This document shows, one piece after another, positions 23,017 through 38,656 of a stretch of DNA of 38,949 nucleotides. The DNA comes from a virus. Position 1 is the stretch's first letter, and every line of letters begins with the position of its first letter. The position numbers and the translations under genes are program-made. The DNA is taken from UHGV virus genome UHGV-0097970, one strand, 5' to 3'. The notes under the pieces are model-generated. The model did no database searches. It was not told the DNA's origin and worked only from the letters and a program-made list of their open reading frames with translations.

Positions 23017-23201
23017 CGTCTTCCCCTCTTGCCCTGTTTGACCATCAGGACGCCGTTAACTATTACATGACGCTCGCCTTTGCTGTCTCGGTTGTACTTG
23101 AGCACTGTTCCTCTTGCGCAGGAAAGCATCCTTGCCACTTCAGTCTGATTGCCTCGTGTCTGGATAAGAAGCTCTGGTATCGTTTGAATTGTGGCGTTCA
23201 T
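23013..23201 (-). CDS. ninH: NinH-like protein
   Basis: TIPELLIQTRGNQTEVARMLSCARGTVLKYNRD resembles lambda NinH; directly upstream of Q. Confidence 0.7.
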   Translation of the reverse strand: MNATIQTIPELLIQTRGNQTEVARMLSCARGTVLKYNRDSKGERHVIVNGVLMVKQGKRGRR

Positions 23202-23560
23202 GCGTTCTCCAGTTCGGTGATTTTTATTCCAAGCCTTCCGCCTGGTACTTTCACGCCACGAATTACGCGAATGTCATCGAATTGCTCGTCGTCTTCCGCA
23301 AATCCGGCGTGGATAAGGGAGTCGAGTAAACCTTTCAGGATGTTGTCGAGGTCGCGGCGGCGGGAGTCTGGAACGTCTGCGATGACTTTGATGCGGAGTC
23401 GTGATTTGGTGAAAATGTCTAACTTAAGTTGGCGGATGATTTGCTGAACGTCTTTTCGGTATTTCTGGCCTTTATCGCTGATGTAGTATTGGCTTCCCCG
23501 TCTTCGCCAGTAGGTGTTCACCGACGGCGGGTATGGAAGCACAAACTGATATTCGCTCAT
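23198..23560 (-). CDS. rusA: Holliday junction resolvase RusA
   Basis: 120 aa, MSEYQFVLPYPPSVNTYWRRRG... typical RusA N-terminus and acidic catalytic region. Confidence 0.85.
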   Translation of the reverse strand: MSEYQFVLPYPPSVNTYWRRRGSQYYISDKGQKYRKDVQQIIRQLKLDIFTKSRLRIKVIADVPDSRRRDLDNILKGLLDSLIHAGFAEDDEQFDDIRVIRGVKVPGGRLGIKITELENA

Positions 23561-23847
23561 GACTTAATCTTCCCCTCCTTCAGCAGTATCGCCTGCGTCC
23601 TGATCACGCCTTCGAGGTGGTAAAGTCTGGCGTCTTTGTTGTCGAGATTATGGGTGCGTCGGTCGATCTCCGCGTGGCAGTCACTACAAGCCCATGCACC
23701 GATCAGGTCGTCAGGCTTCATTCCCGTTCCGCAAATTCCAGCCATCCGGTAATGTGCCAGAACTGTAGTTTCAGGATTACCATTGCATACGCCGTAAATA
23801 CGTACCTGGCATTCTCTGTTGCGCGCTTCTTTGCGTAGGTTAGCCAT
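23557..23847 (-). CDS. DUF1364-type Cys-rich nin-region protein (YbcO-like)
   Basis: MANLRKEARNRECQVRIYGVCNGNPETTVLAHYR...CSDCHAEIDRR; Cys/His zinc-binding pattern, 96 aa. Confidence 0.6.
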   Translation of the reverse strand: MANLRKEARNRECQVRIYGVCNGNPETTVLAHYRMAGICGTGMKPDDLIGAWACSDCHAEIDRRTHNLDNKDARLYHLEGVIRTQAILLKEGKIKS

Positions 23848-24569
23848 TAAGCAGCCTCCCCGGTTACTTTCAGCATTCCGTTATCGAGCAGCTTTCTGGT
23901 CAGCCACTGTTGACCACGCCCGGTGATTTTTGTGGTGAACGATATCTGTATTCCGTGATTTGTGTTGACCGCTGTTTCTTTCACTGCGAAATAGCCGCGA
24001 TCCATATATTCCTGCATTGGCACATTGCGCCGGGAACCTGAAGCAATAAGGATTTTGTGATCGCGCATCCACGCAAACAGTTTGTTTGGACCAATTCCAA
24101 CAACCTTTGCAAAGTTTCCAATCAAAATTCCGCTGGCCTCGCCAACGCGATCGGCAAACTCAACTTTAGGTGCGGCAATTGCGAGCTGGTTTTCCAGTTG
24201 CATTTTCTGCTCAGCAAGGTCAGCAGCAAGGCGCAACGCTTCCGGTAGCGTTTTGGGGATATTAACCGCAGCTTCTTCAAGCTCTCGCCAACGGTCAACA
24301 AGGCGAGCGGTGAACTCTGGCGACAACTGGGCAACAACGACAATACTGTCTCGCTTACCTTGTTCGCCCTCGAAGACGTAATGCTCGTACTGAACATTGA
24401 ACCCTAAGTTATTGATTCTTTCGGAAACCTCAATTTGAGGAAGCCGGATAACACCATTTTTAGCCAGCGTTTCGATGGTACGTTTCACATTGTCATGACG
24501 CTTACCCACCAACTCAGCGATTTCAATGCTTGTCATTTTGATGGCATTGCCATTTATTAACTCATTCAT
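23847..24569 (-). CDS. Rha-family phage regulatory protein / antirepressor
   Basis: N-terminus [35 protein letters not shown] typical of Rha-family proteins; C-terminal antirepressor-like domain; coordinates from ORF track. Confidence 0.7.
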   Translation of the reverse strand: MNELINGNAIKMTSIEIAELVGKRHDNVKRTIETLAKNGVIRLPQIEVSERINNLGFNVQYEHYVFEGEQGKRDSIVVVAQLSPEFTARLVDRWRELEEAAVNIPKTLPEALRLAADLAEQKMQLENQLAIAAPKVEFADRVGEASGILIGNFAKVVGIGPNKLFAWMRDHKILIASGSRRNVPMQEYMDRGYFAVKETAVNTNHGIQISFTTKITGRGQQWLTRKLLDNGMLKVTGEAA

Positions 24570-24732
24570 CGTCTTCTTCCTCGTACATTGAGCTATTCGG
24601 ATCGCTCATCAGTTCTGCGCAGCAGTGCTCACACACGTGAACTTCCAGCACATGCAGCTTCTGACCGCAGTTAGCGCACGTTAAAGCCCGCTCGACGCTT
24701 TGTTGTTCGTAACTTCGATTTGGGTCAATCAC
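24563..24732 (-). CDS. ninF: NinF-like protein (GTG start; not in ORF track)
   Basis: My translation: (V)[55 protein letters not shown], resembling lambda NinF; GAGGAAAA RBS; coordinates +/-1 nt. Confidence 0.6.
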
Positions 24733-24911
24733 CTTGTTTTCCTCGCACGTTCTCTAAGCCACCGGATATCCCACAGGGGAGCCGTGTAGTTGAAGGTTTT
24801 TACGTCAGATTCTTTTGGGATTGGCTTGGATTTATTTCTGGAGCGTTTCGTTGGAAGGTATTTGCAGTTTTCGCAGATTATGTCGGCGATACTTCGTCGC
24901 TGTCTCGCCAC
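24729..24911 (-). CDS. ninE: NinE-like protein
   Basis: [60 protein letters not shown] resembles lambda NinE. Confidence 0.75.
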
Positions 24912-25051
24912 ACGTCCTCCTTTTCCTGCGGTAGTGGTAACACCCCTGTTGGTGTTCTTTCACACCGGAGACACCATCGATTCCAGTAAGGCTGTCCTGG
25001 TCGAAAGCGATCGTCTTCCTTTCGCTCTCCACATCGATAACAGTGCTTCAT
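24878..25051 (-). CDS. Small CxxC zinc-ribbon protein (NinD-like?)
   Basis: [34 protein letters not shown]... two CxxC pairs; overlaps ninE in another frame. Confidence 0.4.
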
Positions 25052-25638
25052 GCGATCACCATTTTGCATGGTTTAATCGCCATGCCGGGAGCCAGTTCAA
25101 AATCGGAGTCGCACTGATTTCCCCACATATCCCACCCGGTCACTTTGTCGCGGCTAAATAACTCACAGCGCGGCACGTCGCCAAGCAACTTAGCTAACAT
25201 GTCTCTTACGATCGGTGGTTTTGCACTGTGCTCCATTCTCGGTGCGGTAAAGTGCTGGCATATTGAAGCGTCCATTCTCTCAGGTAACCGCCCTCGAACG
25301 GCAAACAAGCAATCCTCGCTATTTGCCCGGGTCATATGCCCCATTCCGATCGCACTGTTGCCTTTGTGCTTATTGGTTTTGTGCCAAGTAAAGCCTTTCA
25401 TAGTCATCAACCTGAATCCCCACGCCTCAATTACCTTTAGCGCTTCGGCTGGCTGTGTCGGCACCCACCACATCGCTAACAAGCAAGATTCTGGATCCGC
25501 TAAATCCCATACTGGCAGTCGGCAAATGTCCTGAACATTCATAACATCGTATTTATGTCCAGCACCGCGATTGCCATCGTTGGCTTTGTCGCGATATTGC
25601 CAAGGCGGATCTGCGTAAATAAGTTGGTATTTGTTCAT
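25048..25638 (-). CDS. MT-A70 family DNA N6-adenine methyltransferase
   Basis: N-terminal [12 protein letters not shown] (DPPW catalytic motif); 196 aa; no adjacent restriction endonuclease. Confidence 0.8.
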
Positions 25639-26075
25639 TCAGTTTTATCTCCCCATCTCGCTTTCCACTCCAGAGCCAGTCGCGCTTCGTCTGACCACTT
25701 AACGCCATGTTCTGTACCGAATGCCTGTATAAGCTCTAATAGCTCCGCAAATTCGCTTACACGCATCCTGCTGGTTGACTGGCCTATTACCACAAAGCCA
25801 TTCCCGGCAAGGTTAGGAACAACATCCTGCTGCTTTAATGCTGCGGTAAACACACACTTCCAGCTTTCTGCATCCAGCCAGCGACCATGCCATTCAACCT
25901 GACGAGAGACGTCACCAAGGCAAGCCCAAAGCTTTCGATTCTGGTCTAAGCTGCGGTTGCGTTCCTGAATGGTTACTACGATTGGTTTTGTTGGGTCTGG
26001 AAGGATTTGCTGGATAGCTTGAATGGCGTTCTGCTGATGGATGGGGCTTCTTATTTCAAACGTTAGTTTCCTCAT
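25635..26075 (-). CDS. ninB: NinB recombination protein
   Basis: MRKLTFEIRSPIHQQNAIQAIQQILPDPTKPIVVTIQERNRSLDQNRKLWACLGDVSRQ... near-identical to lambda NinB from memory. Confidence 0.9.
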   Translation of the reverse strand: MRKLTFEIRSPIHQQNAIQAIQQILPDPTKPIVVTIQERNRSLDQNRKLWACLGDVSRQVEWHGRWLDAESWKCVFTAALKQQDVVPNLAGNGFVVIGQSTSRMRVSEFAELLELIQAFGTEHGVKWSDEARLALEWKARWGDKTE

Positions 26076-32055: not shown

Positions 32056-32355
32056 ATGACAGTAGTCATTACATATCTGGCTGACGATAACGCCAGAAAT
32101 CGCCGCAGAGCACGCAGACAGGATCAACGTGAACAGGCAATGCAAGAACAGCGACTGGCGCGAAAAATTGCGCTAAAGCTCTCTGGTTGCGTCAGAGCAG
32201 ACAAAGCAGCATCACTCGGAAGCCTTCTCTGCAAGAAGACAGAAGAAGTCGAGAGTAAACAGAATCGTATTTACTACCGCAAGCCACGCAGTGAAATGGG
32301 TGTGACTTGTGTTGGTCGCCAGAAAATGAAATTAGGCAGCAAACCACTTATTTGA
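32056..32355 (+). CDS. N: N-type transcription antiterminator
   Basis: Arg-rich motif DNARNRRRARRQDQREQ near N-terminus; C-terminus YYRKPRSEMGVTCVGRQKMKLGSKPLI resembles lambda N (WYSKPGERGITCSGRQKIKGKSIPLI). Confidence 0.8.
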   Translation: MTVVITYLADDNARNRRRARRQDQREQAMQEQRLARKIALKLSGCVRADKAASLGSLLCKKTEEVESKQNRIYYRKPRSEMGVTCVGRQKMKLGSKPLI

Positions 32356-32615: not shown

Positions 32616-32837
32616 TGGTGGCCTTTATTTTTAGCATAAACAACAGAATAAACACTGCACTGTGCATTCATTCCAGCGAGTGAATACACGGAGCAATGTC
32701 GCTCGTAACGAAACAGGAGCCGACTTGTTCTGATTATTGGAAATCTTCTTTGCCCTCCAGTGTGAGGGCCTTTTTATATGCATACCAATAACGCTTCACT
32801 CGAGGCGTTTTCGTTATGTATAAATAAGGAGCACACC

Positions 32838-33002
32838 ATGCAATATGCCATTGCAGGGTGGCCTGTTGCTGGCTGCCCTTCCGAATCTTTACTTGAACGA
32901 ATCACCCGTAAATTACGTGACGGATGGAAACGCCTTATCGACATACTTAATCAGCCAGGAGTCCCAAAAAATGGATCAAACACTTATGGCTATCCAGACT
33001 AA
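32838..33002 (+). CDS. cIII: CIII (FtsH inhibitor)
   Basis: MQYAIAGWPVAGCPSESLLERITRKLRDGWKRLIDILNQPGVPKNGSNTYGYPD appears identical to lambda CIII; AAGGAG RBS. Confidence 0.95.
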   Translation: MQYAIAGWPVAGCPSESLLERITRKLRDGWKRLIDILNQPGVPKNGSNTYGYPD

Positions 33003-33084
33003 ATTCACTATCGCCACTTTTATTGGCGATGAAAAGATGTTTCGTGAGGCCATCGAAGCCTACAGAAAATGGAGGTCAAAATGA
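32971..33084 (+). CDS. kil: Kil-like small protein
   Basis: MDQTLMAIQTKFTIATFIGDEKMFREAIEAYRKWRSK overlapping the cIII 3' end as lambda kil does; from memory only. Confidence 0.5.
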   Translation: MDQTLMAIQTKFTIATFIGDEKMFREAIEAYRKWRSK

Positions 33085-33269
33085 TTCCGGTAGAACTGGC
33101 GAAAACTCCAGAATTAAGTCGATTAAAAAGAGAATATCACATTGCTGAGGCTCGTTACTGGCGTAAAGCGGGAGATAAATCAAAGAAACAACTTTGTTTA
33201 TGGCAGGCTCAAAGAGAGCGCATGAATGAGCGCGAATTTCTTTCCGCCCCATCCGAATTACCATTCTGA
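33081..33269 (+). CDS. Hypothetical protein
   Basis: 62-aa ORF MIPVELAKTPELSRLKREYHIAEARYWRK, GGAGG RBS, ATGA overlap with kil-like stop. Confidence 0.4.
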   Translation: MIPVELAKTPELSRLKREYHIAEARYWRKAGDKSKKQLCLWQAQRERMNEREFLSAPSELPF

Positions 33270-33277
33270 GGCAAATT

Positions 33278-33958
33278 ATGGGAACTGCGACATTAATACT
33301 CGGTGAATCTGGCACCGGAAAATCAACCAGCATGAGAAATATCAATCCAGAGGAAGCAATACTTATAAAACCAATAGGCAAGCCGCTACCATTTAAATCA
33401 AAAGACTGGCTTGCATGGGATGCCAGAGCAAAAAAAGGAACCGTAGTTACCACTGACAAATGGGACGTAATAGTTGCCGCAATTAAGCGTGCTCACGAAT
33501 ACGGGAAAAGAATCGTTATTGTTGATGACTTCCAGTATGTGATGAGCAATGAGTTTATGCGCCGCTCAGAAGAAAAATCGTTTGATAAATTTACTGAGAT
33601 AGGCCGCCACGCATGGGAGGTGATTAAGGCTGCACAGGATGCACCTGATGACCTGAGAGTCTATTTTCTTGCACACACCGAAGAAACCCCTATGGGGCGC
33701 GTGAAAATGAAAACTATCGGCAAAATGCTGGACGAGAAAATCACTGTCGAAGGCATGTTTACTATAGTTCTTCGCACCCTTACCCGTGATGACCAGTTCT
33801 TTTTCACCACAAAAAACAACGGTGCAGACACTGTTAAATCCCCAATGGGAATGTTTGACTCCAATGAGATTGATAACGATCTCTCTTTCGTCGATGCCAC
33901 TGTTTGTGATTACTACGGCATCAATAATGTTCATCAAATTAAGGAAAACGCCGCATGA
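33278..33958 (+). CDS. P-loop ATPase, Sak4-like recombination protein
   Basis: Walker A GESGTGKST at residues 9-17; Walker B-like IVIVDDF; 226 aa; followed by SSB-like gene. Confidence 0.65.
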   Translation: MGTATLILGESGTGKSTSMRNINPEEAILIKPIGKPLPFKSKDWLAWDARAKKGTVVTTDKWDVIVAAIKRAHEYGKRIVIVDDFQYVMSNEFMRRSEEKSFDKFTEIGRHAWEVIKAAQDAPDDLRVYFLAHTEETPMGRVKMKTIGKMLDEKITVEGMFTIVLRTLTRDDQFFFTTKNNGADTVKSPMGMFDSNEIDNDLSFVDATVCDYYGINNVHQIKENAA

Positions 33959-34542
33959 GCAACGTGATTTTTACTTATAACGAAGAAGCAGCACTGACCG
34001 CAGGGCAAGGTGGTTTTATTAACGAAACTGGCGCTCATATCATTACCATTACTGAAGCAGAACTAAAGCAATCAGAAAAAGGAGCCAAATTTATTGAGTT
34101 TTCTGGCGAATCCGACGACGGACGTAAAATCCAATATCTTAGCGTCTGTGTTCAGAAAAATGACGGAACGGAAAATAAATTTGGCGCAAATGTCGTCCAC
34201 GCCATGATGGGGTGTGCCGGGATTGGACAATTAACGCAACATATGGTTTCCGCCAGTAAATTTGTTGCTCCTGAATTTCATGGAAAGAAAATCGGGTTAG
34301 TGCTCCAGAAAGTATTAACCACAAACAAAAAGACTGGCGCAGACAGCTACCAGATGGAAATACGCATCCCGTTTATTGCAAAAACAGGTCAAACCCTTAA
34401 AGAAAAGGCGGAAGGCAAGCAACCAGAAACTATCGCCAACATGGTTGCCAGCCTCAAAGATAAAGACAATCGCTCTAAAAACGTAAGCCAGAATCATGCA
34501 GATGATTATGGTTACAGCCAGAACGATTACCCTCCTTTCTGA
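33955..34542 (+). CDS. Putative phage ssDNA-binding protein
   Basis: 195 aa, start overlaps ATPase stop; acidic aromatic C-terminal tail ...DDYGYSQNDYPPF like SSB tails; family not confirmed. Confidence 0.45.
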   Translation: MSNVIFTYNEEAALTAGQGGFINETGAHIITITEAELKQSEKGAKFIEFSGESDDGRKIQYLSVCVQKNDGTENKFGANVVHAMMGCAGIGQLTQHMVSASKFVAPEFHGKKIGLVLQKVLTTNKKTGADSYQMEIRIPFIAKTGQTLKEKAEGKQPETIANMVASLKDKDNRSKNVSQNHADDYGYSQNDYPPF

Positions 34543-34565
34543 TTACTGAAAATAAGGCTCCCATT

Positions 34566-34862
34566 ATGCCAGCGCCTCTGTATGGTGCGGATGACCCGCG
34601 CCGCTGTTCCGGCAATTCCGTATCGGAGGTGCTGGATAAATTCAGAAAAAACTACGATCGGATAATGTCGCTACCGCAGGAAACGAAAGAGGAAAAGGAA
34701 TTTCGCCATTGTATATGGCTTGCAGAGAAAGAAGAACGCGAGCGAATTTACCAGACATCAATCCGACCATTCCGCAAAGCCACATATACCCACTTCCCTG
34801 AATATATCGACCCGCGCCTGCGTAATTACCGCTCACGCTATGGCGCTATCAGTAATGACTGA
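34566..34862 (+). CDS. Hypothetical protein
   Basis: 98-aa ORF. Confidence 0.4.
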
Positions 34863-34872
34863 GGAATTTACC

Positions 34873-35037
34873 ATGAGAGGACTTGCATACAATCCCGGCA
34901 TTCTTCCGGCAGAAATGATTATTCGCCAACGCGTAAAGCCAATGCCATCGAGAGAGGAATTGCTTAAGAGAAATAGTTTCGGTTCTGTTAATGACAACAA
35001 ATATCTGAATGCGATGTGGCGCAAAGGAGGCAACTAG
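34873..35037 (+). CDS. Hypothetical small protein
   Basis: 54 aa from internal ATG of track ORF 34720-35037, GAGGAA RBS. Confidence 0.4.
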
Positions 35038-35570
35038 TGAGCAAGATTGACTATCAGGCACTGCGTGAGTTAGCAAAACAGGCAACACAGGGCGAATGGG
35101 TCGCATTTATTTCGCCGGGCAAATACGGCACGTACGCCGTACACACACCAGGTGATAATCATCACGGAGATATTGTCGACTGGCCAGGATTCGACGAACA
35201 GAAAAACGCAGAGAACAACGCTCGTTATATCGCAGCTTTCAACCCTGAAGTAGTACAGGCGCTGTTGGATGAACGAGAAGCCCAAAGCAAACGCATAGCA
35301 GAACTGGAAGCACGGGAAATAAAACCAGCCAAAGGTGAAGTTCTTGTCGTTGTTTCTGGTTTTACTGGTTGCGGAAAAAGCGCCATAGCCGGGGAAATAG
35401 AAATCGCGATGAAGGCTATTGGTGTACCGGTTCAGTGGACTAATGGCGATGCGGAAAAGCGTATGACAGGAGCTGACTGGCTGACAGCGATTGAGATGTA
35501 CAAACCAACAGTGCGCATCGTGGAAGTTAATGTGCCACGCGCCGCTGGCATTCGCATCAAAGGAGAGTGA
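35037..35570 (+). CDS. Ead/Ea22-like protein
   Basis: KIDYQALRELAKQATQGEWVAF motif typical of Ea22-like proteins; GTG start after AAGGAGG. Confidence 0.65.
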   Translation: MSKIDYQALRELAKQATQGEWVAFISPGKYGTYAVHTPGDNHHGDIVDWPGFDEQKNAENNARYIAAFNPEVVQALLDEREAQSKRIAELEAREIKPAKGEVLVVVSGFTGCGKSAIAGEIEIAMKAIGVPVQWTNGDAEKRMTGADWLTAIEMYKPTVRIVEVNVPRAAGIRIKGE

Positions 35571-37305: not shown

Positions 37306-37497
37306 ATGACCGATACCAGCCTGATTCCTGAGAAAGAAGTGATGAACAAGCTCGGTGTTTCATCACGTCAGACAATCTGGAACTATACCAAACGGCATGG
37401 ATTTCCGAAGCCAGTCAGAACCCACCCCAAATCATACCTTCGCGAAGCTGTTGAAGGGTGGATTCTTAACGGTGGCGTTAATCAGAAATGCTCCTGA
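37306..37497 (+). CDS. AlpA-family excisionase / DNA-binding regulator
   Basis: EKEVMNKLGVSSRQTIWNYTKRHGFPKPVRTHPKSYLREAVEGWI fits the AlpA/Xis pattern. Confidence 0.8.
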   Translation: MTDTSLIPEKEVMNKLGVSSRQTIWNYTKRHGFPKPVRTHPKSYLREAVEGWILNGGVNQKCS

Positions 37498-38656
37498 TGT
37501 GCCAGAACAATTTATCAGCGTGAAGCTCATACGCTTTGCGCTGAGCCTCTATCCAATCGTGTTTATTGTATACGGACATTATCCCGCCAAGTTCATGACC
37601 GAGCATTCGCTCAGTAACATGAGGCTCGACATTCATCTCGGACAGACGTGTAACAAGCGTTCTTCTGAAATCATGTGTTCGCCAGTAACCTATATCCATC
37701 CCTCCCCTTATTCTATTTACGAATCGGTTGGCTGCAGCGATGCTGATCGGTTTGTTTATGTCTTCTCCAGGGAAAAGAACATCATTGTACGTTGTCATGG
37801 CCTTTTCGAGAAAAGGCTTAATTTGTTCGAAGATTGGACGACGGATAACATTACCCATCTTGCTATGCTCTTTCGGTACGGTCCATACGTTGTCCAGCAG
37901 GTCAAATTCTGTCTTTGTTGCCAGCCTAAGCTCTGAGAGCCTCGCCCCCCACAGCATAAGCATCTGATGAAGGAGCTTATTTGACGTAGACGCACGGCTT
38001 CTTTCAATAGCAAGCCAAATCTTAGCCAGTTCGTGATACGACAGTACCCGATCCCCTACCTCAGCGCGGGAGCCGAAGTCCCTTGGCTGGATGCTCATAA
38101 TTGCGCAACTATCTATCAACTGACGCCGCATGCACCAACTAATTGCTGATCTTAGTTGACTTAGCACCTGCCTTGCTCGGCGTGGATTATCTCTTTCTTC
38201 TTCGGTAAGCAGGTCAACCCATTGCTTAACCGTGATAGAAGATGCCGGACGATTAGGAAATGCGTCATGCATGCGCTTCATAACCGTTGATCGGTAAAGT
38301 GCCTGGGTCTTTTCTCTGAGAGTTGTAGAGACGTAGTTGTCGAACCAGTAGTCGAGACACTGGGCGACCGTCATGGAGTTCTCCACCTTCTCTTCAAAAT
38401 AAGTGCGTGGATCCGTTCCTGAGAAATAGAGCTTTCGCAAGTCAGCAGTGATCTGTCTGGCATCCTTCAAAGACAGGGATGGGTATCGACCAAGCCCAAG
38501 TCGATTAGGCTTGCCATGCCAGCGATAGCGGTACTGGAACTGGATGACCCCCTTCGGTGAAATTCGTACGCTGAGGCCATCGGCATCAGCCACTTCTTGT
38601 GGGCCCGAATATGGTTTACCATAAATAGTACGAAGTTTTGTGTCGCTTATAGCCAT
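37478..38656 (-). CDS. int: Tyrosine integrase
   Basis: 392 aa; N-terminal arm-binding-type region; C-terminal catalytic signature HDFRRT ... GHELGGIMSVYNKHD with Tyr; adjacent to attR. Confidence 0.95.
   Translation of the reverse strand: MAISDTKLRTIYGKPYSGPQEVADADGLSVRISPKGVIQFQYRYRWHGKPNRLGLGRYPSLSLKDARQITADLRKLYFSGTDPRTYFEEKVENSMTVAQCLDYWFDNYVSTTLREKTQALYRSTVMKRMHDAFPNRPASSITVKQWVDLLTEEERDNPRRARQVLSQLRSAISWCMRRQLIDSCAIMSIQPRDFGSRAEVGDRVLSYHELAKIWLAIERSRASTSNKLLHQMLMLWGARLSELRLATKTEFDLLDNVWTVPKEHSKMGNVIRRPIFEQIKPFLEKAMTTYNDVLFPGEDINKPISIAAANRFVNRIRGGMDIGYWRTHDFRRTLVTRLSEMNVEPHVTERMLGHELGGIMSVYNKHDWIEAQRKAYELHADKLFWHIRSISD

Follow-up and report, generated by a model that had tools for sequence, protein, structure and literature searches.

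The window analysed here, the whole 38,949-nucleotide stretch of virus genome UHGV-0097970, almost certainly carries a homologous-recombination module of the coliphage HK620 type, in which a Sak4-like ATPase and a single-strand DNA-binding protein (SSB) are encoded by adjacent genes, and the proteins of this module are 99% identical to those of HK620. No evidence contradicting this assignment was found. The window itself is a P22-like (Lederbergvirus-type)/lambdoid mosaic prophage with structural genes similar to those found in JEP4, CUS-3 and their relatives, and no single phage record spans its whole length. Judged by sequence identity, the module is that of HK620 and is thus already known: its sequence dates from 2001, the Sak4 assignment from 2010 and the biochemical characterization from 2018, and a 2025 lambdoid survey counts HK620 Sak4/SSB-2/Abc2 among the standard types of lambdoid Rec module. 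The locus therefore carries little weight as a discovery and serves instead as a clean positive control, in which a non-Red recombination module was recognisable from raw sequence. Indeed, a preliminary description made from the letters alone was right in every respect that was tested, although it left out Abc2 and the hkaM homolog and did not recognise the textbook alternative Rec module.

Gene content of the pL operon and identity to HK620

The genes of the module, their neighbours and the motifs discussed below are gathered in Table 1. Both cIII and kil had been described as lambda-type, and their Pfam matches, on the same strand upstream of sak4, bear this out; together (32838..33084, +) they mark the slot immediately downstream of which lambda has gam-bet-exo. 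Among the scanned pL-operon ORFs, from the N gene to the DUF551 gene, no Pfam or PHROGs match to lambda Gam, Beta (RecT/Red-beta) or Exo (YqaJ-type) was obtained, and neither a phage exonuclease nor a second annealase was found in this operon. The slot is filled, as had been proposed, by an ATPase gene and a gene for an SSB-like protein. The stop codon of sak4 and the start codon of ssb share an ATGA at 33955-33958 (4-nt overlap), an arrangement usual for translational coupling. At the head of the module, the start of the hkaM-like ORF overlaps the kil stop through another ATGA (33081-33084). Abc2 matches PF11043 (Anti-RecBCD_p2, E=4.3e-62) over its full length (residues 1-98, covering all 97 profile positions) as well as phrog_656 (E=7.8e-57), and aligns with HK620 hkaJ. 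The genes located 3' of abc2 encode a DUF2737 protein, an Ead/Ea22-like protein and a DUF551 protein, and are followed by the integration module.

Table 1. Coordinates of the recombination module, its motifs and other features of the window
Feature	Position	Strand	Description
RusA Holliday-junction resolvase	23198..23560	-	
Putative nuclease YbcO	23557..23847	-	
MT-A70 family methyltransferase	25048..25638	-	
NinB/Orf	25635..26075	-	PF05772 E=3e-54
N-like antiterminator	32056..32355	+	upstream of sak4
cIII	32838..33002	+	lambda-type, full length, 54 aa; PF02061 Lambda_CIII E=1.5e-30
kil	32971..33084	+	lambda-type; PF06301 Lambda_Kil E=8.2e-21
hkaM homolog	33081..33269	+	62 aa, head of module; phrog_1723 E=3.3e-33
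sak4 (hkaL homolog)	33278..33958	+	core-only RecA-like ATPase, putative ATP-dependent single-strand annealing protein by analogy with HK620; 226 aa, ATG start
Walker A (P-loop) of Sak4	33302..33325	+	GESGTGKS, residues 9-16, read from translation
Walker B-like stretch of Sak4	33512..33529	+	IVIVDD, residues 79-84, read from translation
ssb (hkaK homolog)	33955..34542	+	putative atypical DUF669/N4 gp45-like ssDNA-binding protein with predicted OB-fold; 195 aa, ATG start
Predicted OB-fold core of SSB	34030..34377	+	residues 26-141, beta1-beta2-beta3-alpha-beta4-beta5
NDYPPF tip of SSB	34522..34539	+	putative Sak4-recruiting motif, tail identical to that of HK620
abc2	34566..34862	+	P22-type anti-RecBCD, third gene of recombination module; PF11043, phrog_656
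Ead/Ea22-like protein	35016..35570	+	PF13935 E=2e-24, N-terminal half
63-aa ORF	37306..37497	+	no Pfam match
Integrase	37478..38656	-	Arm-DNA-bind_3 and Phage_integrase domains

At the DNA level, a 2.1-kb stretch (32800-34900) which covers cIII, kil, hkaM, hkaL, hkaK and hkaJ is 99.1% identical to coliphages HK620 and HK629, the latter being already reported to carry the HK620 module (Hutinet et al. 2018, Front Microbiol 9:743, PMC5928155). At the protein level, Sak4 is identical to HkaL at 224 of 226 residues and the SSB to HkaK at 193 of 195. None of the substitutions (D43E and A68V in Sak4, K143Q and E153V in the SSB) touches an invariant or nearly invariant column, a Walker motif or the tail.

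The hkaM homolog was considered as a further recombination protein, given that both phrog_1723 and the RefSeq record of HK620 label it "recombinase", and this candidate was rejected. The ORF has no Pfam or NCBIfam match and no family support outside its own PHROG, HkaM was described as an orphan unrelated to P22 Arf, and sak4 and ssb alone restored the recombineering level of the full module (Hutinet et al. 2018, PMC5928155). The "recombinase" label looks like a propagated mis-annotation.

Elsewhere in the window, the nin region of the rightward operon (23198..26075, -) encodes further recombination or repair functions. Its NinB/Orf, RusA and YbcO proteins are accessory recombination/repair functions and do not make up a Red-like system. 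In the C-terminal half of the Ead/Ea22-like protein, weak sub-threshold matches to AAA_16 and APS_kinase (E about 0.02) were seen around GFTGCGKS. The integrase gene converges on the 63-aa ORF of the + strand, with an overlap of 20 nt, and a tRNA scan of the whole window, as a landmark for an att site, returned no tRNA gene.

Domain organisation of Sak4 and SSB

The Walker-A ATPase of the preliminary description lies exactly where it had been placed. Both nucleotide-binding motifs are strongly conserved, G9, S11, G12, G14, K15, D83 and D84 being invariant among 51 homologs (down to 54% identity), and the Walker B-like stretch forms a beta strand (E79-82) in the predicted model. The protein matches phrog_2872 ("Sak4-like ssDNA annealing protein", E=5.3e-108) almost from end to end (residues 1-220 against positions 1-218 of the 219 in the profile), and its Pfam matches are limited to the generic AAA_24 and AAA_22. 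Together with the match of the SSB to phrog_743 ("single strand DNA binding protein", E=3.5e-66), the phrog_2872 match indicates that the two genes are not chance ORFs. The NCBIfam search gave nothing meaningful for either protein. Against solved structures, the single-sequence search gave no match for Sak4 and one match for the SSB (E=0.26) that was judged spurious, and the profile search gave P-loop-only matches for Sak4 (E about 0.6) and nothing for the SSB. Because these sequence searches were uninformative for both proteins, a comparison of folds was needed, and the two structures were predicted from alignments of database homologs.

The predicted Sak4 model has a RecA/Rad51-type ATPase core, and its best fold match is the solved Sak4 of Staphylococcus phage 52A (PDB 8rc5), a 219-aa protein to which 182 residues of the model align. 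With 226 residues in total, 182 of them aligned and disorder confined to 218-226, the protein has no space for an extra DNA-binding domain of about 70 residues, whether C-terminal as in RecA or N-terminal as in Rad51. The model thus describes a core-only member of the family, without either of these domains; for HK620, Sak4 (formerly HkaL) was reported to have only the central ATPase domain in common with RecA (Hutinet et al. 2018, PMC5928155). The profile match and the near-identity to the characterized HK620 member argue for membership of the Sak4 family, and with the fold match they sustain the earlier reading of a Sak4-like ATPase with a RecA-like core.

The C-terminus of the SSB reads HADDYGYSQNDYPPF, and its terminal residue F195 is nearly invariant (44 homologs). 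An SSB-like acidic tail had been claimed for this protein; the SSB-like part of the claim stands, the defining feature of the tail being the terminal NDYPPF, which resembles the DDDIPF tip of E. coli SSB, whereas the acidity is mild, with three Asp among the last 13 residues. In the predicted model, residues 177-195 form a disordered tail (pLDDT below 50). No detectable sequence or profile homology links the protein to the canonical bacterial SSB family, and no Pfam family, DUF669 included, was matched even at E<=10 in the Pfam copy searched. Its close homologs are named "DUF669 domain-containing protein" in NCBI and UniRef, and the viral Foldseek matches of the model are DUF669 proteins. Hutinet et al. 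2018 (PMC5928155) assigned HkaK to DUF669 as a distant SSB homolog, linked to N4 gp45 only via intermediate phage proteins.

The fold comparison of the predicted model gives modest support to an OB-fold in the SSB core, as the preliminary description had anticipated, on a point where two papers disagree. We also considered that the protein may belong to an OB-fold clade related to PrgE of the Enterococcus plasmid pCF10 (PDB 8s4s), with a different mode of DNA binding, and regard this as unlikely. PrgE is 11% identical to the window SSB; it binds DNA as monomers in a filament-like manner and accepts dsDNA besides ssDNA, whereas the HK620 SSB is apparently tetrameric and gives two discrete complexes with an 81-mer.

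Proposed mode of action and alternative readings

Both HK620 proteins have been purified and characterized by Hutinet et al. 2018 (PMC5928155). In that study, HK620 Sak4 bound ssDNA, and not dsDNA, solely in the presence of ATP, and its annealing of complementary 81-mers, though weak, also depended on ATP. SSB-HK620 eluted as an apparent tetramer on SEC (apparent mass about 95 kDa) and gave a two-step shift of ssDNA, as E. coli SSB does; it blocked RecA-mediated annealing yet strongly stimulated annealing by Sak4. When the six terminal residues NDYPPF were removed, the SSB became a barrier: binding of Sak4 to SSB-coated ssDNA was abolished, the stimulation of annealing was lost in vitro and recombineering fell 10-fold. 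In a recA mutS background, sak4 alone gave oligonucleotide recombineering 15-fold over background and ssb alone gave nothing, whereas sak4 with ssb reached the level of the four-gene module (about 210-fold in both cases). Co-expression of abc2 with sak4 brought no rise, which is expected because this assay needs no resection. The activity of Sak4 alone was weak and, at some loci, below that of Red-beta (PMC5928155).

By analogy with these 99%-identical proteins, the window Sak4 would bind ssDNA, anneal it and promote recombineering in an ATP-dependent way, and the window SSB, expected to be a tetrameric ssDNA-binding protein, would be its cognate partner. We propose that pL drives transcription of the module under N antitermination, the gene order being hkaM - sak4 - ssb - abc2. 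The SSB, apparently tetrameric and made up of an OB-fold core plus a flexible tail, would coat ssDNA and, once bound, recruit Sak4 through its C-terminal NDYPPF tip; Sak4, as a RecA-core-only ATPase, would then bind ssDNA with ATP and anneal the complementary SSB-coated strands, leading to RecA-independent oligonucleotide recombineering and not to strand exchange. As the module has no exonuclease, the ssDNA ends are probably made by host RecBCD modified by Abc2, as described for P22; Abc2 has a published role as a RecBCD hijacker (Hutinet et al. 2018, PMC5928155; 2025 lambdoid survey). For the phage, the module probably serves the recombination-dependent repair and replication of the genome (concatemer formation), a role supported by the staphylococcal phage data cited in Hutinet et al. 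(PMC5928155), and probably also mosaic exchange with related phages. The identity to HK620 Sak4 and SSB thus speaks for the non-Red single-strand-annealing pathway suggested at the outset.

Other readings of the gene pair were considered. The first holds that the pair mainly serves phage DNA replication, in the switch to concatemers or rolling circle, annealing being the activity and replication the selected function. Indeed, Sak4 of Staphylococcus phage phi11 is essential for growth and multimer formation, ssb mutants having a milder but similar phenotype (cited in PMC5928155), and the 2025 lambdoid survey ties Rec modules to the theta-to-sigma switch. However, no replication phenotype was reported for HK620-type phages in the literature examined, and such a role would fit the same molecular mechanism and is thus not a true alternative; we consider it possible, though not the probable emphasis.

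A second reading would make Sak4 a true filament-forming strand-exchange recombinase of the RecA/Rad51 kind, the SSB supplying the missing second DNA-binding site as Hutinet et al. speculated (PMC5928155). The RecA-core fold of the predicted model would suit this idea, filaments of the staphylococcal phage 52A Sak4 are seen in a cryo-EM complex, and sak4 with ssb raised post-conjugational recombination 20-fold (PMC5928155). Yet the crossover level in vivo was 500-fold below that of RecA, the HK620 proteins neither catalysed strand exchange in vitro nor stimulated RecA, and Sak4 is without the extra RecA/Rad51 domain required for a secondary DNA site (PMC5928155), which makes this reading quite improbable compared with annealing. 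As for the view that the ATPase is a member of some P-loop family unconnected with recombination (kinase, packaging ATPase or helicase loader) and that the SSB-like tail arose by chance, it is refuted by the PHROG matches, the identity to the HK620 proteins and the fold comparison of both proteins, and we give it practically no credence.

Distribution and comparison with known systems

Among phage records, 388 contain the sak4-ssb pair, and many of these phages are Stx-converting. Of 5426 complete E. coli genomes, 195 (about 3.6%) carry it, in every case on the chromosome. In all eight RefSeq E. coli matches listed, PGAP names the two products "ATP-binding protein" and "hypothetical protein" or "DUF669 domain-containing protein". 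The functional work of 2018 is thus absent from the RefSeq annotation, and about 3.6% of complete E. coli genomes merit a re-annotation that takes function into account.

Farther away, in a prophage of Chitinasiproducens palmae (Burkholderiales; L002:4001-5277), a Sak4 homolog with 57% identity occupies the corresponding place, on the downstream side of a repressor/cro pair. The gene directly after it encodes a protein of 205 aa that has 23% identity to the window SSB (E=4e-10 in the pairwise comparison) and ends in DDDIPF, the same tip as that of E. coli SSB. These values indicate that the Sak4-SSB partnership and the tail tip are kept though the body of the SSB diverges much faster. The next gene in that prophage encodes a Sipho_Gp157 family protein and not Abc2. 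Up to 80% of sak4 genes adjoin an ssb (Hutinet et al. 2018, PMC5928155); an adjacent cognate ssb, common but not universal in the family, is present in the window with its 4-nt overlap. Other known Sak4 proteins include those of lactococcal phage 31, Pseudomonas PA73 and Staphylococcus phi11. Despite the fold match, the Sak4 of Staphylococcus phage 52A has just 13% sequence identity to the window protein. It is the target of the SaPI2 Stl repressor. To our knowledge, no Stl-type interaction is known for an E. coli phage Sak4.

The HK620 module is the nearest relative, with the same four genes in the same order (hkaM - hkaL (sak4) - hkaK (ssb) - hkaJ (abc2)), the same slot downstream of cIII/kil, and no difference in Walker A, Walker B or the NDYPPF tail; each of the two proteins differs by two substitutions that are conservative or at variable positions. 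Around the module the two phages part: cIII is full length in the window whereas the HK620 annotation gives a cIII cut short by an internal stop codon, and the immunity region, the integration module and the genes beyond the DUF2737 gene next to abc2 are not those of HK620, as expected for lambdoid mosaics. The int gene of HK620 lies on the pL strand, whereas the integrase gene of the window is on the - strand.

In P22, the arf-erf-abc1-abc2 genes occupy the same positions, also with no phage exonuclease, but Abc2 is the only true homolog (the HK620 Abc2 homolog is 94% identical to P22 Abc2; Hutinet et al. 2018, PMC5928155); Sak4 stands in place of Erf (Rad52-like), the SSB in place of Abc1 and the unrelated HkaM in place of Arf. 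Lambda Red occupies the same pL-operon slot downstream of cIII and kil and reaches the same outcome as the HK620 pair, RecA-independent single-strand annealing and oligonucleotide recombineering with a comparable tolerance of divergence (PMC5928155), but has no homology with the Sak4-SSB module. Lambda Beta is a Rad52-like, ATP-independent annealase forming rings or filaments, whereas Sak4, an ATPase with a RecA core, depends on ATP and on its own SSB; and whereas lambda encodes an exonuclease of its own and uses Gam to block RecBCD, the module of the window has no nuclease and encodes Abc2 instead.
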